The position numbers and the translations under genes are program-made. The notes beneath the pieces are model-generated. The model did no database searches. It had not been told where the DNA came from and saw only the letters and a list, made by a program, of their open reading frames with translations. From assembly GCA_016186625.1 (NCBI GenBank), contig JACPLG010000005.1, positions 36,954 through 100,953 on the forward strand: a DNA stretch of 64,000 bases, in the 5' to 3' direction. The DNA comes from Candidatus Levyibacteriota bacterium. GTDB taxonomy: Bacteria > Patescibacteriota > Microgenomatia > Levybacterales > UBA12049. Every line of letters begins with the position of its first letter. Within the stretch, counting starts at the first letter, position 1. Below are positions 32,444 to 46,893 of this stretch, piece by piece.

Positions 32444-32716
32444 TATGAAAATAATAATTTTTGGCAAAAGTAGTGACTTAGAGGATCTTTTAATAATTAT
32501 TGCCTATATCTTGATCCTTATTCTAATAGCTGCTTTAATTTGGATTTTGATTAGCCCGTTCCTTGCAGTTTTAGTCTCAATTCTTGTCTCATATCTTTTT
32601 TATCTTCGGAAAATCATTGGCAGAAAATAGTCTAAAACTGGATTTATTAGCCTCAATAAAAAAATTTGGGCACTTTACGCTTACTCAGAAAAAACAAATT
32701 TGGTATAGTTACACAT

Positions 32717-33901
32717 ATGTTAAAAATCAATGAGCGGTCGCTTGCTCTTCACAAAAAACATCAGGGGAAGATTGCAACTGTTCCCATAGTTCCCATAAAA
32801 ACCAAAGAAGATCTATCACTTGCCTATACTCCGGGTGTTGCTGCGGCAAGCAGTCTGATTGCCAAAAATCCTATGCTTTCTTATGACTATACGTGGAGGG
32901 GGCGGGCTGTTGCTGTGGTGTCTGACGGCTCGGCGGTGTTGGGACTGGGAAACATAGGCCCTGAAGCGGCACTTCCCGTGATGGAGGGCAAGGCGCTGCT
33001 GCTTAAGGAATTTGGCGGGGTGGACGGCGTGCCTCTAGTTATAAACACTCAGGACGCCTCGGAGATTGTCCGGTTTGTTACCCATATTGCTCCGTCTTTT
33101 TCCGGCATTCTTTTGGAAGATATCAGTGCGCCCCGGTGCTTTCAGATAGAAGAAGAACTCTTAGGAATCGGGATACCGGTCTTTCATGATGATCAGCACG
33201 GGTCAGCGATTGCGGTAAGAGCGGCTCTTAAGAATGCGGCGAAGGTAGTGGGAAAGGAGTATGGTAATCTTCGGGTAGTGATTGTCGGCGCGGGAGCGGC
33301 AGGGCTTGCCACCGCCAAGATGCTTCTTGGCTTAACCTGTCAAAGTGATTTTTGTGAGATTATACCGGGAGGGCTACGGGTAAAAGATGCCATCATTGTC
33401 GATAGGGCGGGGGCCCTCTTTCCCGGAAGAGCTGATCAAAATATATATAAGCAGGGATTAGCCAGCGTGTCCAACATCGACCGCAAAAGTGGGACACTTG
33501 CCGAGGTTATTCAAGGCGCAGATGCGCTGATCGGAGTTTCCGGGCCAAACAATATTACGCCTGAGAATATACGACGCATGGCTCCTCACCCAATCGTATT
33601 TGCCATGGCCAACCCCGTACCCGAGATTATGCCCGATGAGGCCAGACGAGCAGGGGCGGCAGTAGTTGCAACAGGAAGGAGCGACGTTCCTAACCAAATC
33701 AATAACGTCCTGGTATTTCCCGGCGTTTTTCGGGCTGTTAAGGAGGGAAGGTTAAAAACTATTACACCGGAGATGAAACTGGCCGCATCAGACGCGTTGG
33801 CAGGATTAGTAACAAAGCCTACAGAAGATCACATTATCCCCGATCCGTTTTTTCCGAGGCTTGCAGAGACCATCGCCCATGCGATGCTAAAAAAGGCATA
33901 A
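32717..33901 (+). CDS. NAD(P)-dependent malic enzyme (short form, no PTA domain); markedly GC-rich relative to its surroundings
   Basis: LAYTPGVAAAS, VVSDGSAVLGLGNIGPEAALPVMEGKALL and VVIVGAGAAGLA motifs. The likely start is the ATG at 32717 (MLKINERSLALHKKHQGKI). Confidence 0.85.
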   Translation: MLKINERSLALHKKHQGKIATVPIVPIKTKEDLSLAYTPGVAAASSLIAKNPMLSYDYTWRGRAVAVVSDGSAVLGLGNIGPEAALPVMEGKALLLKEFGGVDGVPLVINTQDASEIVRFVTHIAPSFSGILLEDISAPRCFQIEEELLGIGIPVFHDDQHGSAIAVRAALKNAAKVVGKEYGNLRVVIVGAGAAGLATAKMLLGLTCQSDFCEIIPGGLRVKDAIIVDRAGALFPGRADQNIYKQGLASVSNIDRKSGTLAEVIQGADALIGVSGPNNITPENIRRMAPHPIVFAMANPVPEIMPDEARRAGAAVVATGRSDVPNQINNVLVFPGVFRAVKEGRLKTITPEMKLAASDALAGLVTKPTEDHIIPDPFFPRLAETIAHAMLKKA

Positions 33902-35879: not shown

Positions 35880-37052
35880 ATGAACTTAAGAGATTACGGA
35901 TTAGCTTCGGATAGACGAACAGTTTTAGAAAAAGAACTTAAGCTTACTCTTCCAAATATTGGCTCGTTTACCTTGGACGAAAAAATTGCAAGTTCCAGAA
36001 ATTGCGAAAACATGATTGGAGTAGCACAAGTGCCAATTGGGATTGCAGGACCGTTAAAAGTTCAAAGTTCAATCCATTCGGCAAGCTCAGGACAAGCGTT
36101 CAAAGTTCAAAGTTATTATCTGCCTTTGGCGACGACAGAGGGGGCGTTGGTGGCATCGGTTAATAGAGGATGTAAAGCAATAACAGAATCTGGAGGGGCT
36201 GTCTCATATGCGTATCGCGTTGGACAAACAAGAGGACCTGTCTTTTCAGTTAAAAACCTGGAAGAACAGAAGAAAGTTTATGACTGGATAAAAAAGAATG
36301 AAGCAAAACTAGGAAAAGTTGCAGAATCTAACTCTCAGCATTTAAAACTTTTAAGAATAAAAGTTCGGGGACTGTCAAATTACTTGTTTGTTCGATTTTA
36401 TTTTAATACGGAGGATGCCATGGGTATGAATATGGTAACAATTGCAACCCAGAAAGCGTCAGAATTAATTGAAAAAGAAACAGGAGCAAGACTTATTTCT
36501 GTTGCAGGGAATTTTGATATAGATAAAAAACCATCCTGGCTTAATTTTATAAACAATCGCGGCTTTAAAGTCTGGTCTGAGGTGGTTCTAACAAAAAAAG
36601 TTCTCAAAGATGTTCTAAAAACTAATGCTGACAAATTTTTTGAAGTATGGCTTTCCAAATGTATGATCGGATCTGCAATGTCAGGTTCGTTAGGTTTTAA
36701 CGCTCAATATGCAAATATAATTGCAGCGCTTTTTATAGCAACAGGTCAGGACCCAGCCCATGTTGCGGAGGCAAGTATGGGGATTACAACAGCAAAAGTT
36801 TTACCAAACGGAAATCTTTCAGTCTCAATTTATTTGCCTGACTTAAGCATAGGAACAGTTGGTGGGGGAACTGGACTAGCAACGCAGCAGGAAGCGCTTT
36901 CGATATTGGGTGTTGCCGGCGCAGGAAATGTCGAAAAATTCGCTGAAATTGTTGGAGCAGCAGTTTTGGCAGGAGAAATTTCATTGATATCAAGTTTGTC
37001 CGAAGGAAGTTTGGCGATTGCTCATGAGAAACTAGGGAGAGGACTGAGATAA
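35880..37052 (+). CDS. hydroxymethylglutaryl-CoA reductase, class I (archaeal/eukaryotic type)
   Basis: EDAMGMNMV motif, LATTEGALVAS, GTVGGGT and a C-terminal HxxLG. Confidence 0.85.
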   Translation: MNLRDYGLASDRRTVLEKELKLTLPNIGSFTLDEKIASSRNCENMIGVAQVPIGIAGPLKVQSSIHSASSGQAFKVQSYYLPLATTEGALVASVNRGCKAITESGGAVSYAYRVGQTRGPVFSVKNLEEQKKVYDWIKKNEAKLGKVAESNSQHLKLLRIKVRGLSNYLFVRFYFNTEDAMGMNMVTIATQKASELIEKETGARLISVAGNFDIDKKPSWLNFINNRGFKVWSEVVLTKKVLKDVLKTNADKFFEVWLSKCMIGSAMSGSLGFNAQYANIIAALFIATGQDPAHVAEASMGITTAKVLPNGNLSVSIYLPDLSIGTVGGGTGLATQQEALSILGVAGAGNVEKFAEIVGAAVLAGEISLISSLSEGSLAIAHEKLGRGLR

Positions 37053-37088
37053 TTTGAAATTCGAAATTTAAAATTGAAAATTTAAAGT

Positions 37089-38123
37089 ATGGCTGGAATT
37101 GTTAGTTACGGAGCATACATCCCTAAATATAGAATTAAACTTTCTGAAATTGTCAAGGTCTGGCAAAAAGATGAAGAAGAAATAATAGGTGGCCTTAAAG
37201 TCTTGGAAAAAAGTGTCCCGGGAGTTGATGAGGATGCAGTGACAATTGGAATTGAGGCAGGAAAAAGAGCTCTTGAGATGGCTGGACTCGCTCCTTCGAA
37301 AATTGGATGTGTTTACTTTGGATCCGAAAGCCATCCATATGCTGTTAATCCTTCATCTTCAATTGCGGCAGAATATCTGGGCATTGGACCGAATTATTTT
37401 GCTGCAGATTTAGAGTTTGCCTGTAAAGCTGCAACAGCCGGGATGCAAGTTGCCAATGCTTTGATTGAAAGCAATAAGATAAAATACGGACTCGCAATTG
37501 GCGCGGACACTGCCCAGGGCAAACCACATGATGCACTCGAATATACTGCAGCAGGCGGTGGTGTTGCTATTATTTTGGGAAAAGGGAGAGAAGTAATTGC
37601 CGAAATTTTAGATACTTCTTCTGTTACTTCGGATACCCCTGATTTTTGGAGAAGAGACGGAATGCGCTATCCTTCACATTTTGGCCGCTTCACTGGAGAA
37701 CCAGCATACTTTATGCATATTGTTTCTGAGGGAAAGAAACTTCTTGAAAAAAGTAAAATTAAACCACAGGACTTTGCCTACGCCGTATTTCATATGCCAA
37801 ACGGAAAGTTTCCTAGAGTTGCTGCTAAGAAATTAGGTTTCACTCCAGAACAAATAGCGCCGGGCCTGGTAGTTAATAGAATCGGCAATCCTTATTCAGC
37901 CTCTTCCCTAATGGGACTGGCCAAAGTTCTGGATATTGCCAAGCCGGGCCAGCGAATATTTTTTGTTTCATATGGATCAGGAGCAGGCTCTGACGGGTTT
38001 ATTTTTGAGACAACAAAAAATATAGTTTCAAAACAAAAAAAGACTGTACCGGTTGAGGTACAAATTGAAGACAAAATATACATTGACTACCCAACATATC
38101 TCAAGTTTACCCACACACTATGA
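37089..38123 (+). CDS. hydroxymethylglutaryl-CoA synthase, archaeal type
   Basis: MAGIVSYGAYIPKYRIKLSEI N-terminus, catalytic Cys block (FACKAATAG), and a ~345 aa thiolase-fold size. Confidence 0.85.
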   Translation: MAGIVSYGAYIPKYRIKLSEIVKVWQKDEEEIIGGLKVLEKSVPGVDEDAVTIGIEAGKRALEMAGLAPSKIGCVYFGSESHPYAVNPSSSIAAEYLGIGPNYFAADLEFACKAATAGMQVANALIESNKIKYGLAIGADTAQGKPHDALEYTAAGGGVAIILGKGREVIAEILDTSSVTSDTPDFWRRDGMRYPSHFGRFTGEPAYFMHIVSEGKKLLEKSKIKPQDFAYAVFHMPNGKFPRVAAKKLGFTPEQIAPGLVVNRIGNPYSASSLMGLAKVLDIAKPGQRIFFVSYGSGAGSDGFIFETTKNIVSKQKKTVPVEVQIEDKIYIDYPTYLKFTHTL

Positions 38124-39259
38124 TACACATATTGGGCGTTGCAACCACTGAATTTGGAGAACTTTGGAAGAAGTCTCCAAGAGCTTTAGCAAAACAGGCT
38201 GCGGAGGGAGCGCTGGAAGACGCAGGGCTAAAAATTAGTGATATTGATGCTTTGTTTGTAGGAAACATGCTTGCGGGAATTCTTGGAAATCAGGCAAATC
38301 TTGGTTCTTTATTTGCAGAAGAGCTAGGTTTGAGCGTCCCTGCGATAAGAGTTGAAGGGGCATGTGCTTCAGGTGGATTAGCACTTCATAGCGGCGTTAA
38401 TGGTATTTTATCAGGTCAATACAAAACCGTGCTGGCTTTGGGAGTTGAGAAGATGACAGACTCAGGACAGGATGAAGTTACAACAGGACTTATGGCCGCA
38501 GGGTCTGACAGTGAAAGAATGGCGGGCGCAACTTTTCCGGGGATTTATGCCCTTATGGCCCAGGCGTATTTGGAAGAATTTGGAATCTCTGAAGAAACCT
38601 TGGCCGGAGTTTCTGTTAAAAACCATTACCATGGGAGTCTTAACGACAAAGCGCAATTCCGCCGCGTGGTGACAGTTGAAGATGTTATGAGTAGCGGGCG
38701 AATTGCAGACCCACTGAAGCTTTTAGACTGTTCTCCTATTTCCGATGGGGCATCGGCAGTAGTGATAAGCTCGGAAAATTTAAGAAAAAGAAAACCCGTT
38801 TATGTCAGCGCCTCAGAAGTTGCCACAGACACTCTTGCTCTTCACGATAGAAAATCTTTCACGTCTTTGTCATCGGTTGTGAGAGCGTCCAAAAATGCTT
38901 ATAAAAAAGCAGGAATTAGCCCGTCGGACGTTGACGTTTCGGAAATTCATGATTGTTTTTCAATTGCCGAGGCAATTGCCGTTGAGGATTTAGGTTTTTC
39001 AAAAAGAGGAGAGGGTGCCAAAGATATTGCAACGGGAAAAATGACTTTAGGCAAGGGTAAAGTTATTACAAATCCCTCAGGTGGGCTTAAAGCATGCGGG
39101 CACCCCGTGGGAGCAACAGGGATTAAGCAGATTGTTGAGATTACCCAGCAGCTAAGAGGTGAGGCAGGAGGCAGGCAAGTAAAAAGAGCAAAAATAGGAT
39201 TAACTCATAATGTGGGAGGATCAGGAGCAGTAGCAGTAATCCACATTCTCAAAAATTGA
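38120..39259 (+). CDS. acetyl-CoA acetyltransferase (archaeal-type thiolase that partners HMG-CoA synthase)
   Basis: GACASGGLALH active-site Cys region and a C-terminal GHPVGATG motif. Start overlaps the HMGS stop. Confidence 0.85.
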   Translation: MIHILGVATTEFGELWKKSPRALAKQAAEGALEDAGLKISDIDALFVGNMLAGILGNQANLGSLFAEELGLSVPAIRVEGACASGGLALHSGVNGILSGQYKTVLALGVEKMTDSGQDEVTTGLMAAGSDSERMAGATFPGIYALMAQAYLEEFGISEETLAGVSVKNHYHGSLNDKAQFRRVVTVEDVMSSGRIADPLKLLDCSPISDGASAVVISSENLRKRKPVYVSASEVATDTLALHDRKSFTSLSSVVRASKNAYKKAGISPSDVDVSEIHDCFSIAEAIAVEDLGFSKRGEGAKDIATGKMTLGKGKVITNPSGGLKACGHPVGATGIKQIVEITQQLRGEAGGRQVKRAKIGLTHNVGGSGAVAVIHILKN

Positions 39260-39260
39260 C

Positions 39261-39563
39261 ATGATTACAACACCGGTAAAACTTTGGAGAAGACAAAAAG
39301 AAGTAGCCAGACATTTAGGACGGGAAGGTAAAATAATTTCTTGGACAATTATTAGAGTTCCTCCAAAAGCCTTTCTCAATGAAACACCCTATCCTGTTGT
39401 GATAGTTAAGATGGAAAATGGAGAAAAAATGATTGGACAGCTTGTAGACTGGCAAGATGAAGATTTGGCAGTTGGCAGAAAAGTCGTGGCAGTACTAAGA
39501 CGCTTGTTTTCAGGCGATAGCGAGAGTATAATTGCCTACTATATTAAGTTTAGGCCTATATGA
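39261..39563 (+). CDS. DUF35 OB-fold/zinc-ribbon-like scaffold protein of the thiolase-HMGS complex
   Basis: ~100-aa protein directly after the thiolase, as in archaeal thiolase/HMGS/DUF35 operons. Has the KMENGEKMIGQLVDW OB-like segment. Confidence 0.65.
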   Translation: MITTPVKLWRRQKEVARHLGREGKIISWTIIRVPPKAFLNETPYPVVIVKMENGEKMIGQLVDWQDEDLAVGRKVVAVLRRLFSGDSESIIAYYIKFRPI

Positions 39564-40615
39564 AGAGTATAAGAATCTCTGCCCCCGGGAAGCTACATTT
39601 ACTTGGAGAACATGTTGTTGTCTATAACAAGCCGGCAATTCTTGCAGCGGTTGATAAAAGATGTTTTGTAGAAATAACTCCTAGAAAAGATAAGAAAATT
39701 AAAGTATTGTCTCGAAATTACAATACTTCGACACTACGTCGTATCGAAGAAATTGTCGAAAAGTTTGAGAAAGCCCAAAAAGACTGGGAAACTTATAATG
39801 AAAATAATGACGTTTCTCTTTTGAAATCAATTACCAAGGACCCACTGGATTATCCTCAAGCAATAGTCGGACAATTTTTAAATTATTATAAAATAAAGAA
39901 AGTTGAAGGATTTGATTTAGTTATTGATTCACAGATTCCTGTTGGGTCCGGAATGGGATCATCTGGTGCTTTGTCTGTTTCAATAATCGGAGCATTGTCT
40001 TTGTTTGCGGGTAAACCTTTTAATAAAAAGATAATTAACGAAATTGCATTTTTGGCAGAGCAAAAGAAACATGGCAAGCCTTCAGGGGGAGATAATTCAA
40101 CAAGCTGCTATGGAAAATTAGTCTGGTTTAAAAAAGACGAGGGGATAAAACCATTAGGTTTTGGAGTTTCAGAAAAGATTTCAAAGAATTTCTATGTTAT
40201 AAACACAGGCACGCCTAAAGAGACAACTGGGGAGATGGTGAGTCGAGTTCGCGATCTATTCTCAAAACGAGAATTATTTGTCCAGGAGATTCTGGATAGA
40301 CAGGAAGAACTGGTAAAAGATTTGAAATTGGCTCTTGAAAAAAATATTCCGAGACAAGTTCCAGGTATTATAAAAAACGGAGAAAGAAATCTCCAAAAAT
40401 TAGGAGTTGTCTCGCCTTTTGTTCGGGGTTTAATCAGAAAAATAGAGGAAAGCGGTGGAGCTGCTAAAATCTGCGGAGGGGGAGGAAAAACCAAAGCAAC
40501 AGGAATAATTTTGATTTATCACACTGACTTGCAAAATCTTAAAAAAGTGCTACAATCCCACAATCTAAATCCAACTCAGCTTACATTGGGAGTTGAAGGA
40601 TTAAGAAAAGAATAA
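39560..40615 (+). CDS. mvk: mevalonate kinase (GHMP kinase)
   Basis: SAPGKLHLLGEHVVVYNKPAI N-terminus and GHMP motif PVGSGMGSSGALSV. Confidence 0.8.
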   Translation: MKSIRISAPGKLHLLGEHVVVYNKPAILAAVDKRCFVEITPRKDKKIKVLSRNYNTSTLRRIEEIVEKFEKAQKDWETYNENNDVSLLKSITKDPLDYPQAIVGQFLNYYKIKKVEGFDLVIDSQIPVGSGMGSSGALSVSIIGALSLFAGKPFNKKIINEIAFLAEQKKHGKPSGGDNSTSCYGKLVWFKKDEGIKPLGFGVSEKISKNFYVINTGTPKETTGEMVSRVRDLFSKRELFVQEILDRQEELVKDLKLALEKNIPRQVPGIIKNGERNLQKLGVVSPFVRGLIRKIEESGGAAKICGGGGKTKATGIILIYHTDLQNLKKVLQSHNLNPTQLTLGVEGLRKE

Positions 40616-40616
40616 T

Positions 40617-41699
40617 ATGACAGTTACTGAACAAGTAGACAGGAGAGGCCCAAGTGGTCCGAAATTTCATGATGAATCTTTAATGCCAGTTACGATGGGT
40701 ACTCCTTATCGTGTTCCAGATTATGCTTATCCGAATTGGGGCTTGGTGTATGAAGGAGAAGAAAAAGCTACTGCCGCATACAGAGCTGAGTGGGCAGAGG
40801 GTAACAAAGATCAACTTGGCTTAGTAACGAGAGCAATAGTAGAAGCGGGTTATGGAAATTTTCCTGCGCTTCTTAGGGAATCTGCCGCAAGAGCTATTAG
40901 GGAATTAGTTACATACAGAGGAGAGTCAGTTAAAATTCTTGATATTGGGGCAGGGCCAGGAACATCTGCGGATGAAGTATATGAAGCCTTAGATTCCGTA
41001 ACGCGAAGCCACACAGATATGTATCTTGTGGATCCTTCTCCAGATAGTCTTGTTGATGCAAAAGTACGCTTAGAAGGAAAAGGAAGATTTAATTTCTTTC
41101 TTCAGGGTTCAGACAGCGATATGTTACCCAATATAGATTCAAACACATTTGATGTAGTTTTGGGTGTGGCGTCAGTTCATCATCACGCTAAAATACCTTT
41201 TGAAGAATACAATCGCGTTCTTAAGCCGGGGGGATTTTTAGTTTTAGCAGATTGGCATCAGCCCTTATGGGAGCACCCGGGATCAGTTTTTGATTTTCTA
41301 GAGCAAATAGATTGGCCAAGAAAAGAAGAAGGATTAGATAATTGGCTGAGGGTTTACCCAAAGGCAGTCAATATGCCGCCACCTCCACGTAACCCTGCTG
41401 ATAGACAAGCTATAATCGAAATTACGGAGTTTTGGAAAGCATATCAAAGAATTTCTAGGGAGGCGAATCTAGGTCCAAATGCAATATGGCCGCTTGAAGG
41501 ACATAGGCCAGTAGCAAGATATGTAAAGGCAATGAAAGAAGCCGGATTCGATCTTGAAACTCCAGATATTGATAGGCTAATTAGGAATGGTGTTATTTCT
41601 CGAAATCCGCATCAAATTCTTCCAGACTCAAGTCTTTTACAGCTTTCTGTTGCACAAAAACCAAGAGATCATGAACGTACAGCAAGAATCGCAGCCTAG
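40617..41699 (+). CDS. class I SAM-dependent methyltransferase, embedded in the mevalonate operon
   Basis: Motif I ILDIGAGPGTSADEV, acidic motif II (MYLVDPSPD) and post-I VLKPGGFLVLADW. Has ~95-aa N-terminal and ~140-aa C-terminal extensions. GC is higher than the flanking genes. Confidence 0.7.
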   Translation: MTVTEQVDRRGPSGPKFHDESLMPVTMGTPYRVPDYAYPNWGLVYEGEEKATAAYRAEWAEGNKDQLGLVTRAIVEAGYGNFPALLRESAARAIRELVTYRGESVKILDIGAGPGTSADEVYEALDSVTRSHTDMYLVDPSPDSLVDAKVRLEGKGRFNFFLQGSDSDMLPNIDSNTFDVVLGVASVHHHAKIPFEEYNRVLKPGGFLVLADWHQPLWEHPGSVFDFLEQIDWPRKEEGLDNWLRVYPKAVNMPPPPRNPADRQAIIEITEFWKAYQRISREANLGPNAIWPLEGHRPVARYVKAMKEAGFDLETPDIDRLIRNGVISRNPHQILPDSSLLQLSVAQKPRDHERTARIAA

Positions 41700-41716
41700 A
41701 ATAAAACAGCTAAAAT

Positions 41717-42808
41717 ATGAGCGCTCCTGTTGAAAGAAGCCAAAGAACTTTACAGAGAAATATGGATCTGTTGATGCGATATCACGTAGCACAATCAGGC
41801 GGAGAAGTTTCAGAAGCGCATAGCCCAACGCATCTCAGAACTACTGCTAGACTTACTGAATTAGGAGGAATTTTGTATGGATTCTCTCCAAGAGAATTTG
41901 ATCTAGCTCACTTTGCAGGAGATTTCCATGATCTGGTTAGGTCACCAAGCGAAGACCCGAGTCTAAAAGATGAGGAAGTTAGCGCCAGACAAGCCGTGCT
42001 AATAATGGAGATGATGAGCGATAGAGGAGTTTTTGCCACTGATTCTCAGGAAAGAGAAGCAGTTAGATTTGCTATTAAAAATCAGGGAAAAGCTCCAATT
42101 TCTTTCCTGGACGGTTCCACAAGAGATGAGGTACCGCAGGATTTGGGTGATAGAATCCATGCAGCACTGTTTATTGCAGATAAAATTGAAGCAAATGGAG
42201 CAAGAGTAATCGCCAGAAGATCGAGTTTTGTAGCGGGAGATAGGCTTCATAATCCAGATGGTGATTGGCAAAAATTTGGTTTTGTTCCGGATAAAGACGA
42301 GGCATTAGTTGTGGCCATTGAGAGTTTGCTCAGACTTGGAATAATAAATCCTCAATATATTTATCCTGGAAAAATAAGGAGAATTATAGACCCATTGTAT
42401 GAGGTTCAAAGAGAATTTGTTAAAGGAGTATTTAAAGCAAAAGGACTTAAAGTAGGAGATGCGGCAAAGCTACTTTTAGAAAGAAAAAGGGATGATGGTA
42501 AAAACATGCTAGAAGCGAGGAAATTATCTGCTCCTGACAACGTTGAGGAGCTTGTCGCTTTTTTGCAAGAAAAAACAGGAATTACAGATGATGCAATTGA
42601 ATCAACAACGGAAGATGTTGCCAATTCGGCTATAGAAACAGTACTTTATTTCAGCAGAGACTATAAAGCAGATTTGGATAGACTGATAGCTGATTGGCTA
42701 CCAAGAGGAGAATCGGCTGAGCGATGGCAACGTCAAATGGTGGAGTATGCAGAAGGAAACTGGTTTAAGCAGGCAAGAGAACAAATTTCTTCTGATACAA
42801 TAAGTTAA
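41717..42808 (+). CDS. HD-domain metal-dependent phosphohydrolase-like protein with a C-terminal extension
   Basis: The His...HD...D pattern (HSPTHL ... HFAGDFHDLVR ... D) is visible in the first 150 aa. The remainder has no recognisable motif. Confidence 0.5.
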   Translation: MSAPVERSQRTLQRNMDLLMRYHVAQSGGEVSEAHSPTHLRTTARLTELGGILYGFSPREFDLAHFAGDFHDLVRSPSEDPSLKDEEVSARQAVLIMEMMSDRGVFATDSQEREAVRFAIKNQGKAPISFLDGSTRDEVPQDLGDRIHAALFIADKIEANGARVIARRSSFVAGDRLHNPDGDWQKFGFVPDKDEALVVAIESLLRLGIINPQYIYPGKIRRIIDPLYEVQREFVKGVFKAKGLKVGDAAKLLLERKRDDGKNMLEARKLSAPDNVEELVAFLQEKTGITDDAIESTTEDVANSAIETVLYFSRDYKADLDRLIADWLPRGESAERWQRQMVEYAEGNWFKQAREQISSDTIS

Positions 42809-43780
42809 GTGAATAAAATAACTGTTTCGGCGCCGGGGAAGTTGATGCTATATGGTGAGCACGCTGTTGTCTATAACCACCCGTGTTTGGTTACCGCAGT
42901 TGACCAGAGAATTCGTTTAACCGCAGAAGTCTTGGAAAGTTCGAACTTCGAACTTGAGGCAAGTGATGTTAAAGTCTCAAATTATAAAAAACCATTAAAT
43001 AAATTAGGAAAAGGGGATATTCCAAAAGGTGCGCAGTTTGTTGAGATAGCGGTAAAAAATACTGCAGAGCAGTACTCAATAAAAAATAAAGGATTAAGAA
43101 TAACTACGAGTTCAGAGTTTTCTTCTAAGTTTGGATTTGGATCATCAAGTGCTTCAACAGTCTGTACTGTTTTTGCACTCTCGAAATTATTTGGTCTGAA
43201 ACTTTCCAAGAAGCAATTGTTCGATATCGCATATAAAACAGTTTTGGACATTCAAGGAAAAGGATCTGGATTTGATGTGGCAGCAGCGGTCTTTGGCGGA
43301 ACAGTTTATTTTGTAACCGGTGGAAAAAAGATTGAGCCATTAAACATCGATAGTCTACCATTGATCGTTGGATACAGTGGAATAAAGGCAGATACTGTAA
43401 CTCTAATTAATCAAGTAAAAGAAAAGTTTGCTGATAATCAAAAAAGACTCGATGAGATATACAATGAGATTGATCGACTTGTTGAGAAAGTAAAACCAAA
43501 AGTTATTAATAAAAGTTGGAAAGCTGTTGGGACAGCTATGTCATCTAACCAAAAACTTCTTAAAGAGCTTGGAGTAAGCATTAAGAAGCTCGACAAAATG
43601 ATTGAAGGTGCAATAAAAGCTGGAGCGTATGGCGCAAAATTATCTGGAGCAGGCGGAGGAGATTGTATGATTGCACTTTCGCCAGAAAAAGTCCGTTCAA
43701 AAGTTGAAAAAGCTATCGAAAAAGCTGGAGGAGAAGTCATCAAAATTACCACAAACGCAGAAGGTGTTAGAATAGAATAA
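42809..43780 (+). CDS. GHMP kinase; candidate phosphomevalonate kinase (or second mevalonate-family kinase)
   Basis: SAPGKLMLYGEHAVVYNHP N-terminus and GHMP motif FGFGSSSASTV. Sits between mvk and the decarboxylase gene. Confidence 0.6.
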   Translation: MNKITVSAPGKLMLYGEHAVVYNHPCLVTAVDQRIRLTAEVLESSNFELEASDVKVSNYKKPLNKLGKGDIPKGAQFVEIAVKNTAEQYSIKNKGLRITTSSEFSSKFGFGSSSASTVCTVFALSKLFGLKLSKKQLFDIAYKTVLDIQGKGSGFDVAAAVFGGTVYFVTGGKKIEPLNIDSLPLIVGYSGIKADTVTLINQVKEKFADNQKRLDEIYNEIDRLVEKVKPKVINKSWKAVGTAMSSNQKLLKELGVSIKKLDKMIEGAIKAGAYGAKLSGAGGGDCMIALSPEKVRSKVEKAIEKAGGEVIKITTNAEGVRIE

Positions 43781-43782
43781 TA

Positions 43783-44745
43783 ATGAAAGCTACAGCTCAG
43801 ACGCCCTCTAATATAGCATTTGTTAAGTATTGGGGAAGGAAGGACGAAGAATTAAGGCTTCCAGAAAATGGAAGTATTTCCATGAATCTTTCAGGGCTTG
43901 TAACAACTACAACTGTTGAGTTTAGCGATAAGTTCGAGCAAGATGAAATTATTATAAATAGCGTCAAAGAAGATTTAGAAAATAATAGGGCAGTAAAACA
44001 CTTAGACAGAGTTCGATCGCTGGCAAAAATAAACTTAAAAGCAAAAGTTAATACTTCAAATAATTTTCCAACGGGAACCGGCCTTTCCTCATCAGCATCA
44101 GGTTTTGCAGCTCTTACTGTGGCCGCGGCTTCAGCGGCCGGTTTAAAATTATCAGAAAAGGATCTTTCGATATTAGCAAGACAAGGATCAGGATCTGCCT
44201 GCCGTTCAATTCCTGACGGATTTGTTGAGTGGTTGGATGGAGACTCAAGCGATACATCCTATGCTGTTTCCATTTTCCCTCCAGACTACCTTGATATTGT
44301 AGATGTGGTGGTAGTTGTATCAACAGAGAAAAAATTTCTGGCAACTTCTGAAGGACAAAAAACTGCCAGAACCAGCCCCTTTTTTGAAACCAGACTTAAT
44401 TTGATCAGAAATAAAATAAATCGAGTAAAAAAAGCCATCGAGGATAAAAACTTTTCAGAATTCGGAGAATTGATTGAAAGGGAAGCCTTAGAGTTTCACT
44501 CAATTCTGTTTACTTCTGCCCCCCCGTTGTTTTATTGGACACCAGAGACAGTTAAAATTATGAAGTACGTTCAGGCCCTAAGAAGAGAAGGATTGGAATG
44601 TTATTTTACGATTAATACCGGCCAGGATGTCCATGTTATTTGCAAGAAAGAAGACTCAGAAAATGTTTCAAAAAAACTTTCAGAAATTCCGGAAGTTCGA
44701 AATACGATTATTAATTTCCCATCCCCCGGCGCCCATTTGGTTTAA
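43783..44745 (+). CDS. diphosphomevalonate (or phosphomevalonate) decarboxylase, MVD family
   Basis: NIAFVKYWGRKDEELRLPENGSISMNL N-terminus, and a GTGLSSSASGFAAL GHMP-like P-loop. Confidence 0.8.
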   Translation: MKATAQTPSNIAFVKYWGRKDEELRLPENGSISMNLSGLVTTTTVEFSDKFEQDEIIINSVKEDLENNRAVKHLDRVRSLAKINLKAKVNTSNNFPTGTGLSSSASGFAALTVAAASAAGLKLSEKDLSILARQGSGSACRSIPDGFVEWLDGDSSDTSYAVSIFPPDYLDIVDVVVVVSTEKKFLATSEGQKTARTSPFFETRLNLIRNKINRVKKAIEDKNFSEFGELIEREALEFHSILFTSAPPLFYWTPETVKIMKYVQALRREGLECYFTINTGQDVHVICKKEDSENVSKKLSEIPEVRNTIINFPSPGAHLV

Positions 44746-45813: not shown

Positions 45814-46893
45814 TTATAAACGTACGAGCGCTGCTGTCCAGGTAAGACCGGCGCCATAACCGACCAGCAGTCCAATATCTCCCGCCTGAATTTTCCCTTC
45901 TGCCAAACCGTCTTGTAAATCAAAAGGGATTGAAGCGGAAGAAGTGTTGCCATACTTAAGTATTCCGCGGCCATAGTGTCTAGCATTTCCAATTCCAAAC
46001 GTTCCAAGCCCATCAACCATACGAATACTCGCCTGATGATGTAGTACAAAAGTAGCGAGCTCTATATCAACTTCCGGCCCAAGCAGTTCCGCAATATTAG
46101 CTTTATTGATTCTTCCAAAATATCGTTTTAATTCCGGTCCTACCATTTCAAATTGATCTGCGTACGGAGGCCGCCTTACTGTTAGATATGTATCATCCTC
46201 GTGATAATTCGGCGTTCTCATTCTTAACAACCCTTCAGTATCTTTTTCATGTTGTACTGTGGACGCTTCAACCATCAGATCTTCTCCGTAAGTAAATTGC
46301 ATAGCTATTGCCCTATCAGATAAGATTAAACGCGATTTAGAACTGTCTTCTTCTGGCGGCGGGAGAGTCCGGCGATAACCTGTTTCATCCACAACTATAA
46401 GCACACTTTGTCCTTTCGGATCTTTTTGCCGGAGCCAGTCAAGCGCAACAACGAAGCCTGAGCATGCAGTCGAAACTGTATGGGTATTTTGTAAATTTGC
46501 CGGCGCTAAGGGTTTTTCTAAACCTAATTCTGTGACGTTGGCAATAAGGCTTTCTCTTACTTGATTTGCTCTTTGCTGCTTGTCCGGATTATCTGGATCA
46601 AACGGAGGCAAATGGCTTGCACTGACTATCATAATATCAGGTGTTTGCCCTGTCCTTTTTACTAAAGCTTTTGCTACTTTTTCTGCAGCAGAAGCAGATT
46701 CTTCTTCGGTTGCTTCATGTAAAACTGAGGGGCCAAGCTTAGTACGAAAGTCGTAATCAGGAAGTAAGCCAAACTCCGCTAAATACGCGGCATCAATTAT
46801 AATTCTTTCTGTTGGAGTAAATCGTTCAAATTGTATGCCTTGAACTGGTAGTCCAAGCCGTTCCCTTATTTCAGCTACTGTTTCAGCGCCCAT
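45814..46893 (-). CDS. 3-oxoacyl-ACP synthase III (FabH)-like thiolase-fold condensing enzyme; GC-rich relative to flanks
   Basis: Catalytic Cys (VSTACSGFVVAL), His (HHQAS) and Asn (GNTSSASIP), with a C-terminal GYGAGLTWTAALVRL. The N-terminal third is atypical for FabH. Confidence 0.65.
   Translation of the reverse strand: MGAETVAEIRERLGLPVQGIQFERFTPTERIIIDAAYLAEFGLLPDYDFRTKLGPSVLHEATEEESASAAEKVAKALVKRTGQTPDIMIVSASHLPPFDPDNPDKQQRANQVRESLIANVTELGLEKPLAPANLQNTHTVSTACSGFVVALDWLRQKDPKGQSVLIVVDETGYRRTLPPPEEDSSKSRLILSDRAIAMQFTYGEDLMVEASTVQHEKDTEGLLRMRTPNYHEDDTYLTVRRPPYADQFEMVGPELKRYFGRINKANIAELLGPEVDIELATFVLHHQASIRMVDGLGTFGIGNARHYGRGILKYGNTSSASIPFDLQDGLAEGKIQAGDIGLLVGYGAGLTWTAALVRL

Follow-up and report, generated by a model that had tools for sequence, protein, structure and literature searches.

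Nine co-directional genes on the + strand were identified by ORF mapping in the window, which is the whole 64-kb stretch of Candidatus Levybacteria (CPR) DNA that was analysed, and together they form a mevalonate operon (Table 1). From HMGR to MVD the intergenic gaps are 36, -4, 1, -4, 1, 17, 0 and 2 nt. An earlier note on this DNA had described spacings of 0-20 nt or overlaps, which is correct for all junctions except HMGR/HMGS, where the gap is 36 nt. Its assignments of the mevalonate-pathway genes were all confirmed with Pfam and NCBIfam models.

Table 1. Genes of the mevalonate operon, in the order of transcription.
Gene product	Position	Strand	Evidence
HMG-CoA reductase, class I (HMGR), operon gene 1	35880..37052	+	PF00368 399 bits; TIGR00533 409 bits
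Archaeal-type HMG-CoA synthase (HMGS)	37089..38123	+	NF003274 508 bits (cut-off 244); TIGR00748 458 bits
Archaeal-type acetoacetyl-CoA thiolase	38120..39259	+	NF004720 475 bits (cut-off 420); Thiolase_N, Thiolase_C_1
DUF35/OB-fold partner of thiolase-HMGS complex	39261..39563	+	PF01796 52.8 bits
GHMP kinase A, divergent mevalonate-kinase paralogue	39560..40615	+	TIGR00549 181 bits (cut-off 163)
MT1, class-I SAM-dependent methyltransferase	40617..41699	+	Methyltransf_25/11/12/31 above gathering cut-offs
HD-superfamily phosphodiesterase-like metal-dependent phosphohydrolase (HD protein)	41717..42808	+	H...HD...D ligands; PF01966
GHMP kinase B	42809..43780	+	TIGR00549 201 bits (cut-off 163)
Diphosphomevalonate decarboxylase (MVD), last operon gene	43783..44745	+	TIGR01240 282 bits (cut-off 171); MVD-like_N, MDD_C

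The operon possesses the full complement of the classical MVK/PMK/DMD CPR type, with HMGR-I, archaeal HMGS, AACT and DUF35, two GHMP kinases and DMD in one direction, and the same gene order was found in 66 related loci. GHMP kinase B matches the Methanosarcina mazei mevalonate kinase 6mde over its full length (E 5e-39) and, judging by this similarity, is probably the mevalonate kinase. The best PDB matches of GHMP kinase A are also mevalonate kinases, with an E value of merely 1e-17; this protein is probably the phosphomevalonate kinase, a name which we infer. A FabH-like gene at 45814-46893 was considered as a further member of the inserted group and rejected, since a homologue is absent from all related loci.

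The two genes between the kinases had been described in the earlier note as a class-I SAM-dependent methyltransferase and an HD phosphohydrolase, and both identifications were borne out. In the methyltransferase, here called MT1, the motifs that had been quoted are present, the seven-stranded beta-sheet fold was found, and the Pfam models Methyltransf_25, _11 and _12 scored 41.9, 38.9 and 38.3, against cut-offs of 27, 21.2 and 30, respectively. SAM motif I is LDIGAGPG (residues 108-115), with G111 and G115 invariant, and is conserved together with the acidic SAM-binding residues. An N-terminal lid occupies approximately residues 1-100 and a cap insertion approximately residues 214-331. All full-length homologues come from CPR and Micrarchaeota and bear only the generic name "class I SAM-dependent methyltransferase". 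About 50 homologue clusters at 90% identity were found, and the family comprises 125 clusters at 50% identity (E<=1e-30). MT1 is a member of an uncharacterised family of class-I SAM-dependent methyltransferases.

A kinship to GPP/IPP methyltransferases or to UbiE/MenG, which had been raised in the earlier note, did not withstand comparison: no specific relationship was obtained, the matches being non-specific or far below the cut-offs. The UbiE/MenG/COQ5 models gave 29.3 bits against a cut-off of 158 (TIGR01934) and 28.8 against 216 (PRK00216), and the Pfam Ubie_methyltran match (27.9 bits) is limited to the SAM core, residues 103-216. Membership in BioC was rejected on a match which was far below the cut-off or non-specific. 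The best homologues are not rRNA or protein methyltransferases, RlmA being the only rRNA methyltransferase model matched, with 15.7 bits against a cut-off of 303. An anti-phage defence function was likewise dismissed, as the PADLOC match of MT1 to the mad2 methyltransferase region (residues 91-221, E 3e-11) is generic; the HD protein had no PADLOC match.

The HD protein carries H...HD...D in its N-terminal half, as had been claimed, within a phosphodiesterase-like signature HxxxH...HD...D. Across 45 sequences the metal ligands H35, H71, D72 and D155 do not vary, while H39 is conserved in at least 90%. The protein matched PF01966 and has the HD fold, with no match to Pfam PDEase_I. An invariant Arg cluster (R167, R168, R176, R206) and a helical C-terminal extension of roughly 150 residues are further features of the family, for which about 50 homologue clusters at 90% identity were found. 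The nearest folds are those of cyclic-nucleotide phosphodiesterases and nucleotide pyrophosphohydrolases (YpgQ, YqeK, small alarmone hydrolases). One homologue is labelled "YqeK" by one source. An HD-domain diiron oxygenase (MIOX, PhnZ, TmpB), with its six ligands H, HD, H, H, D, was rejected because only four of the positions are conserved. The HD protein is a phosphodiesterase-like, metal-dependent phosphohydrolase of the HD superfamily. Since the homologues of MT1 and of the HD protein each form about 50 clusters, and both predicted structures are of high confidence, the two ORFs are real genes.

Based on base composition, the earlier note had proposed that the two genes were acquired later than their neighbours. 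Their GC content is slightly elevated (0.423 for the methyltransferase and 0.405 for the HD gene, where the genes of the window average 0.386, sd 0.031), although the thiolase gene, at 0.452, exceeds both. GC at third codon positions is 0.263 and 0.264 and hence lower than the window mean (0.320), which leaves codon positions 1-2 as the source of the excess, a reflection of amino-acid composition; GC content was therefore rejected as a sign of acquisition. Later insertion into an existing operon is supported by synteny instead, because the closest Levybacteria keep the backbone yet differ at the junction between kinase A and kinase B.

MT1 is present in four of the 66 related CPR operons, as is the HD protein, and each gene is missing from the other 62. 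The pair is therefore accessory and no core step. Of two observations which the earlier note had considered damaging in combination to a pathway role, the first, orthologous operons without the genes, was thus made, while the second, the pair elsewhere beside unrelated neighbours, was not. It is highly improbable that the pair constitutes an obligatory step of a new mevalonate variant, for example as a replacement of IDI or a new route to IPP. In favour of such a step, the two genes lie inside the operon with translational coupling to it, and no clear IDI was found within the window, which covers part of the genome, so that an IDI may lie elsewhere in it. Against such a step, 62 of 66 operons manage without the pair, the operon already has a complete classical set (MVK-like kinase, PMK-like kinase, DMD), and the pair co-exists with a Nudix IDI at three loci (L001, L006, L057).

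The association with the pathway, which was at first a positional inference, is strongly supported by loci from other genomes. Of the non-redundant MT1 loci, 33 were informative, having flanks of 3 kb or more; 28 of these have a mevalonate-pathway gene within 5 kb, and an HD, HAD or HAD-like neighbour occurs at 19. These loci cover the MVK/PMK/MVD variant in CPR and the MVK/decarboxylase/IPK and AcnX/UbiD/UbiX/IPK variants in DPANN archaea. Parcubacteria DG_74_1 has the block kinase A-MT1-HD-kinase B-MVD as well, as do other Microgenomates and Levyibacteriota, and the inverted order HD-MT1 was found in Gottesman- and Roizmanbacteria. An archaeal locus with Nop5, fibrillarin and thermosome genes (L005) reads kinase-kinase-MT1-HAD...MVD; a Micrarchaeota locus (L133) has AcnX-UbiD-UbiX followed by IPK-HAD-MT1-HD-like; and a third archaeal locus (L136) has a kinase followed by HAD-decarboxylase-MT1-HAD-HAD-IPK. 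Similar arrangements are present at L104, L109, L112, L113 and L130, and two or three Nudix genes lie at several archaeal loci. A 321-aa family (u321) adjoining archaeal MT1 was tried as an HD protein or other known fold and gave no Pfam, PDB or hhalign signal. The commonest immediate neighbour of MT1 is a GHMP kinase, which in archaeal-type clusters can only be mevalonate kinase. An apparent HD-MT1 fusion (P0132, 718 aa) comes from one 3.5-kb contig, where a frameshift in the assembly could have produced it.

Comparative genomics shows MT1 and HD to be a horizontally exchanged accessory cassette, dispensable for the core pathway, whose relatives in CPR and DPANN stand almost exclusively beside lower-mevalonate-pathway genes, and in which the partner of MT1 is usually a phosphohydrolase, either the HD protein or a HAD-type enzyme in its place. 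That the cassette is linked to the pathway is very probable.

The same slots may hold other genes. An unrelated methyltransferase family, MT2, fills the slot between kinase A and kinase B at five loci (L012, L013, L016, L021, L137), and at L066 this junction hosts a PF04240 carotenoid protein. A 268-aa ORF in the same position at L020 was considered as a divergent HD protein and rejected (hhalign probability 0.2%). In the closest relatives the slot between kinase B and MVD holds HAD phosphatases, and non-homologous phosphatases (HD, HAD_2, Hydrolase_3 and the HAD-like u291) are swapped across loci.

Such occupants would be expected if the kinase junction were a permissive insertion site and the cassette acted on unrelated substrates, the PDE-like HD protein for instance on Ap4A, a (p)ppGpp-like compound or a second messenger of nucleotide type and the methyltransferase on RNA, protein or another small molecule. 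The PF04240 and MT2 genes make the junction look like an insertion hot spot, the nearest folds of the HD protein and the YqeK name of one homologue point towards nucleotides, and a few MT1 homologues (L135, L128) lack mevalonate context, as do the family members at L116, L117 and L120. A single hot spot, however, cannot explain an association seen in two domains, three non-homologous lower-pathway architectures and several gene orders; the remaining occupants of the slot are isoprenoid-related or methyltransferases themselves, the rRNA methyltransferase models scored far under the cut-off, and the PADLOC match was generic only. Coincidental location is improbable.

Because the association extends across three pathway variants, the substrate should be a metabolite common to all three; the candidates are mevalonate-5-phosphate or else IPP/DMAPP, together with IP. 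The mechanism considered likeliest is a side branch, or a valve, at the pathway's end. MT1 would transfer the methyl group of SAM to a C5 prenyl (di)phosphate. The HD enzyme has a Zn/Mg-type H...HD...D site and the invariant Arg cluster, and would cleave a phosphate or diphosphate ester, either in the substrate or in the product. A possible catalytic base of MT1 is the H189/D212 pair, which, by alignment position only, sits where polyketide C-methyltransferases carry a His/Glu base. D212 lies at the end of beta-5, where the work on CurJ reportedly places the partner Glu of these enzymes. The conserved SAM-binding residues of MT1, its conserved His run and the invariant metal ligands of the HD protein speak for catalytically competent enzymes.

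The best explanation overall, to which we give a probability of about 0.5, is a pathway-linked MT1-HD cassette performing methylation and hydrolysis on isoprenoid precursors. The specific chemistry, prenyl (di)phosphate methylation by MT1 and (di)phosphate hydrolysis by the HD protein, rests on guilt by association and is put forward tentatively. It is doubtful, though conceivable, that MT1, as a new family unrelated to the GPP/IPP methyltransferases, makes a methylated C6 unit from IPP, DMAPP, IP or mevalonate-5-phosphate for further processing by HD, HAD or Nudix enzymes, in an undescribed terminal branch of the pathway common to CPR and DPANN. Several points count against the preferred explanation, among them the lack of specific similarity to known IPP/GPP/FPP methyltransferases and the family members without mevalonate context. 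R32 is the sole Arg invariant throughout the MT1 family, which, as far as the alignment can tell, would be meagre for metal-free diphosphate binding; and a phosphatase would be superfluous were methylated IPP merely handed to prenyltransferases. With GHMP kinases as the commonest neighbours, mevalonate or mevalonate-5-phosphate would be no less fitting than IPP as the substrate of MT1.

The cassette could alternatively serve metabolite damage control or as an overflow valve, without any new isoprenoid. The phosphohydrolases (HD, HAD and extra Nudix) would then clear surplus or aberrant GHMP-kinase products, such as mevalonate-5-PP or IPP made in excess, or mevalonate analogues that act as antimetabolites and have been phosphorylated, and MT1 would O-methylate the carboxylate of mevalonate, mevalonate-5-P or a by-product acid. 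Yeast Tmt1 O-methylates trans-aconitate and isopropylmalate in this manner. The patchy, non-essential distribution (4/66 operons) agrees with such a role, and non-homologous replacement of the phosphatases and of the methyltransferases (MT1 versus MT2) is typical of housekeeping and repair. The multiple Nudix genes at archaeal loci and the frequent direct contact of MT1 with a GHMP kinase also agree, and from established chemistry carboxylate O-methylation would be the sole easy class-I methylation of mevalonate-5-phosphate. On the other side, MT1 resembles carboxyl methyltransferases no better than C-, N- or S-methyltransferases, and an esterase partner is absent. We know of no such damage product or antimetabolite for the mevalonate pathway in these organisms, which also counts against this role. 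Tight translational coupling, like the possible HD-MT1 fusion, speaks for two successive steps on a shared substrate and not for independent cleaning activities. Damage control is considered rather unlikely, and the precursor-modifying cassette is preferred.

The mevalonate pathway is among the best-studied biochemical routes, and to our knowledge its variants differ solely in the last three steps. The occurrence of the cassette in two domains and with all three prokaryotic lower-pathway variants seen at these loci implies that a universal isoprenoid precursor undergoes a reaction hitherto overlooked. Both CPR bacteria and DPANN archaea are tiny symbiotic lineages; if the branch to a methylated C6 unit exists, these ultra-small symbionts would produce either (homo)isoprenoid building blocks of a non-canonical kind or a hemiterpenoid that carries an added methyl group. 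If MT1 is a C-methyltransferase, its family would be a new source of non-canonical C6 terpene units, which are of biotechnological interest, and CPR and DPANN, about whose lipids little is known, might contain modified isoprenoids. If the cassette serves proofreading or as an overflow valve, it would be the first dedicated damage-control module for the mevalonate pathway. The question is directly testable, with short genes, high-confidence monomer models and commercially available candidate substrates.

The backbone and order of the operon match the CPR-type (bacterial/eukaryote-type) mevalonate gene cluster described by Hoshino & Gaucher 2018 (PMC6107057), with archaeal-type AACT (+DUF35), HMGS, HMGR-I, two GHMP kinases (MVK, PMVK) and DPMD, except that in the window two added genes separate the kinase pair. 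That description includes no methyltransferase or phosphohydrolase, the words "methyltransferase" and "phosphatase" having 0 occurrences in its text. Neither enzyme was found described for mevalonate clusters in the literature searched, and no published account was found of the combination, in agreement with the earlier note, which had held that it is not a described variant of the pathway.

MT1 showed no specific sequence or structure relatedness to the characterised GPP/IPP/FPP C-methyltransferases (GPP 2-C-MT 4f84/3vc1; IPP/DMAPP methyltransferases such as Rhodococcus fascians MT2 and Lon23; C6-FPP MT 9tb4). Among its best sequence and structure matches are polyketide-synthase C-methyltransferase domains (CurJ 5thy, PsoF 6kjg, DszA 6cca, AprA MT2 6d6y), at 14-21% identity over about 205-218 of 360 residues, and the His of the PsoF VIHAT motif aligns with the conserved His run of MT1 after beta-4 (H188-H190 in the window protein). 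The polyketide-synthase domains are parts of megasynthases and methylate beta-ketoacyl-ACP, whereas MT1 is a protein on its own. In contrast to BioC/BioH logic and Tmt1-type metabolite methylation, the hydrolase of the cassette is a phosphohydrolase and not an esterase, and the analysis yielded no sign of carboxyl methylation. The HD protein is 9-21% identical to class-I cyclic-nucleotide phosphodiesterases and small HD phosphohydrolases (2pq7, YpgQ 5dqv, YedJ 3gw7), from which its family differs in the extra Arg cluster and the C-terminal helical extension, and its genomic context is one of isoprenoid genes and not of nucleotide signalling.

Nine plus-strand ORFs span positions 35880 to 44745 of the window, with successive gaps of 36, -4, 1, -4, 1, 17, 0 and 2 nt, and were named using Pfam and NCBIfam searches, in which the HD protein (HD) had no family match. 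It is confirmed that a methyltransferase (MT1) and an HD gene are embedded in the mevalonate operon, as the earlier note had described. A database protein with 100% identity carries the annotation of a Candidatus Levybacteria MAG. Hoshino & Gaucher 2018 (PMC6107057) described the operon backbone as the mevalonate cluster of CPR. Kinase B matched archaeal mevalonate kinases full-length (6mde, E 5e-39) and kinase A matched them at E 1e-17 only; because kinase B matches so much better, we infer that kinase A is the putative phosphomevalonate kinase.

Positions of the window operon genes and of features in related loci (L numbers; MT2, second methyltransferase family)
Feature	Locus	Position	Strand
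Class-I HMG-CoA reductase	window	35880-37052	+
Archaeal-type HMG-CoA synthase	window	37089-38123	+
Archaeal-type thiolase	window	38120-39259	+
DUF35/OB partner of thiolase	window	39261-39563	+
Kinase A, divergent mevalonate-kinase-like GHMP kinase	window	39560-40615	+
MT1, class-I SAM methyltransferase	window	40617-41699	+
HD protein	window	41717-42808	+
Kinase B, second mevalonate-kinase-like GHMP kinase	window	42809-43780	+
Diphosphomevalonate decarboxylase (MVD)	window	43783-44745	+
Malic enzyme	window	32666-33901	
FabH/KAS-III-like gene	window	45814-46893	-
MT2, kinase A/kinase B slot	L012	7310-8182	
MT2, same slot	L013	7104-8120	
MT2, same slot	L016	8213-9040	
MT2, same slot	L021	7402-8256	
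MT2, same slot	L137	7001-7816	
HAD phosphatase, kinase B/MVD slot	L003	13101-13952	
HAD phosphatase, same slot	L008	9066-9917	
HAD phosphatase, same slot	L011/L012/L013	9153-10004	
HAD phosphatase, same slot	L021	9111-10001	
PF04240 protein, kinase A/kinase B slot	L066	7466-8203	
P0132, HD-MT1 ORF	L134	699-2855	
u321	L106	7330-8295	
u321	L113; L114; L121	~6168; ~11154; ~14	
u291	L125	9108-9983	
u291	L096; L108	~2704; ~3046	
RlaP-type gene	L133	3828-4433	-
Tandem MT1 paralogues	L135	6800-9293	
Genes beside the mevalonate genes, DG_74_1-like	L001/L002	945-5832	
Genes beside the mevalonate genes, DG_74_1-like	L006	1-4576	

Species-representative genomes were scanned with the window MVD, giving 80 related CPR loci, 66 of which covered the kinase-MVD region. 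Within these 66, MT1 was present in four, the HD protein in four, MT2 in five, a HAD phosphatase in seven and a Nudix IDI in 13; the remaining operons were plain HMGR-HMGS-thiolase-DUF35-kinase A-kinase B-MVD. The MT1-HD pair is accessory and not a core part of the operon, and an obligatory new core step was ranked last of four readings.

The closest Levybacteria (MVD identity 76-83%) have the flanking sigma factor and topoisomerase IB in common with the window, and the content of their kinase A/kinase B junction varies. The window carries MT1 and HD there and no accessory gene elsewhere in the operon; L003 carries MT1 and a 34%-identical HD, with a HAD between kinase B and MVD. The junction holds HD only in L008, MT2 in L012 and L013, and nothing in L010, all four having a HAD elsewhere in the operon. 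Cassette identity (MT1 54%, HD 34-52%) is far under that of the flanking kinases (68-77%), which points to replacement through horizontal exchange.

In the closest Levybacteria, the HAD phosphatase that separates kinase B from MVD is of the Hydrolase_3/Cof type (283-296 aa). That slot is occupied by a Nudix IDI-1 in Roizmanbacteria and others, and by neither in the window, where the gap is 2 nt. MT2, whose members are 271-338 aa long and form 36 clusters at 90% identity, is a class-I family unrelated to MT1, the common part being the SAM-binding core only (hhalign); the MT2 of L137, at 49% identity, lies in exactly the same slot of another CPR operon. A Gottesmanbacteria operon has at this junction a PF04240 "carotenoid biosynthesis protein" of 245 aa with a hydrophobic N-terminus. 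The kinase A/kinase B slot seems to gather isoprenoid-related accessory genes.

Later acquisition of the pair, which had been argued from its higher GC, is correct, on the strength of synteny and not of base composition. The GC contents of MT1 and HD are 0.423 and 0.405 (window gene mean 0.386 ± 0.031), below the 0.452 of the thiolase. The small surplus is confined to codon positions 1 and 2, thus reflecting amino-acid composition, and GC3 (0.263 and 0.264) falls short of the 0.320 averaged over the window, so that GC lends no support to recent acquisition. In GC the malic enzyme gene stands well above every other gene of the window (0.503; GC3 0.478). Its protein shares 92% identity with that of a partial copy in L003, a related 574-kb contig, so this GC is a conserved feature and not a sign of recent transfer. 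The third highest GC (0.437) is that of a FabH/KAS-III-like gene (359 aa; ACP_syn_III_C, 64 bits) between the topoisomerase IB and a PNPOx-like gene, both of which are kept in close relatives. No homologue of it was found in the fetched related loci, which gives it the look of an insertion specific to this genome and independent of the cassette.

Kinase A-MT1-HD-kinase B-MVD is found again as a block in Levyibacteriota L040 and in Parcubacteria DG_74_1, where the upstream genes are unlike those of the window (bacterial-type HMGS, polyprenyl synthase, GGR, UbiA); in Gottesman- and Roizmanbacteria the order is reversed, HD-MT1. DG_74_1-like loci show an unusual mixture of archaeal-lipid-like and fatty-acid genes: DUF362, SDR, UbiA prenyltransferase, geranylgeranyl-reductase-like flavoprotein and polyprenyl synthase upstream of the mevalonate genes, and FabA-like, acyltransferase and acetyl-CoA carboxylase genes downstream.

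A library-wide HMM search recovered 125 MT1 clusters (50% identity) at E<=1e-30, including a tier of 370-430 aa from Micrarchaeota and Bilamarchaeaceae, and scanning metagenomes with the MT1 profile turned up 45 loci. With archaeal-type pathway genes added as queries, a mevalonate-pathway gene was located within 5 kb of MT1 in 28 of the 33 non-redundant loci having at least 3 kb of flank. Three lower-pathway architectures are covered: MVK/PMK/MVD with or without Nudix IDI (CPR, and the archaeal contigs L005 and L106, which carry Nop5, fibrillarin and thermosome genes); in L136, HAD-decarboxylase-MT1-HAD-HAD-IPK preceded by an oppositely oriented GHMP kinase; and AcnX-UbiD-UbiX with IPK, as in L133 (IPK-HAD-like-MT1-HD-like), which L104, L109, L112, L113 and L130 resemble. 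In hhalign the 372-aa MT1 neighbour in L133 hits the HD family at E 1e-11, and SEAHNIDH...GWLHD was found in-frame upstream of its gene. In the same Micrarchaeota cluster an RlaP-type gene, for an RNA-repair-pathway nucleotidyltransferase of the polymerase-beta family, lies between the genes for AcnX, the phosphomevalonate dehydratase, and UbiD, the decarboxylase.

Mevalonate context is missing at L116, L117, L120 and L128. The clearest exception is L135 (Bilamarchaeaceae), whose two tandem MT1 paralogues (399 and 430 aa) adjoin seryl-tRNA synthetase and a cluster of ribosomal-protein genes; no mevalonate gene lies closer than 8 kb. Across two domains of life, the cassette stands near-exclusively beside genes of the lower pathway. 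The tie to the mevalonate pathway, earlier drawn from position, is strong, with 28 of 33 loci and three architectures showing it; we put the probability that MT1/HD is a pathway-linked accessory cassette at about 0.85, and coincidental insertion was ranked third.

An HD, HAD_2, Hydrolase_3 or HAD-like protein occurs within 5 kb of MT1 in 19 of 33 informative loci, and several archaeal loci have two or three Nudix genes. Because non-homologous phosphohydrolases accompany MT1, its substrate or product probably undergoes plain hydrolysis of a (di)phosphate ester, not specialised phosphodiesterase chemistry. P0132 (718 aa), known from one 3.5-kb Logan contig, combines HD-like residues 7-343 (hhalign E 3e-92 against the HD family) with MT1 residues 364-691 and is followed by a GHMP kinase; either the two genes are truly fused or a frameshift has joined them artificially. 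Two unannotated families recur directly beside archaeal MT1: u321 (321 aa) gave no signal in Pfam, PDB or hhalign, and u291 (291 aa), with a DxD motif at its start and a faint phosphoserine-phosphatase match, is probably HAD-like.

The MT1 substrate would be a metabolite common to all pathway variants, the candidates being mevalonate or mevalonate-5-phosphate, or IPP/DMAPP (and IP). Facile class-I methylation of mevalonate-5-phosphate is possible only at the carboxylate or phosphate. The gene most often found directly next to MT1 encodes a GHMP kinase, which in AcnX-type clusters can only be mevalonate kinase, and this keeps mevalonate-5-phosphate alive as a substrate. Alkene C-methylation of IPP and DMAPP by SAM-dependent enzymes has precedent (PMC9401056). 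A side branch on C5 prenyl (di)phosphates was ranked first of the four readings, with rather low confidence in its specific chemistry, and a damage-control or overflow module second.

The view that this combination is not a described mevalonate variant agrees with the literature covered here. An evolutionary survey of the pathway (PMC6107057) mentions no methyltransferase or phosphatase in these clusters, nor does a second; a Micrarchaeon paper does not tie a methyltransferase to the pathway, and literature searches found no methyltransferase/phosphohydrolase module in mevalonate clusters. As a cluster type the backbone is already known; what is new is the conserved accessory module predicted to methylate and dephosphorylate, and the function of MT1/HD is directly testable.

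The fold assignments bear out the pair as a SAM methyltransferase and an HD protein with conserved SAM-binding and metal-binding residues; their superfamilies are known, whereas the families themselves are uncharacterised. Membership of the UbiE, rRNA-methyltransferase, HD-oxygenase and defence families was rejected, as was that of GPP/IPP methyltransferases, and the kinship with the latter proposed earlier did not stand. MT1 was set beside the thiol methyltransferases TmtA and GtmA, Coq5, BelI, CysG, phosphoethanolamine N-methyltransferases and the polyketide C-methyltransferases CurJ, PsoF, DszA and AprA. When the family is aligned with PDB profiles, the His of PsoF "VIHAT" falls opposite a conserved His run that follows beta-4 (window H188-H190, H189 being near-invariant across the wider family), and the invariant D212 lies at the end of beta-5, the site of the partner Glu in PKS C-methyltransferases; together these matches make a His/Asp base in MT1 plausible.
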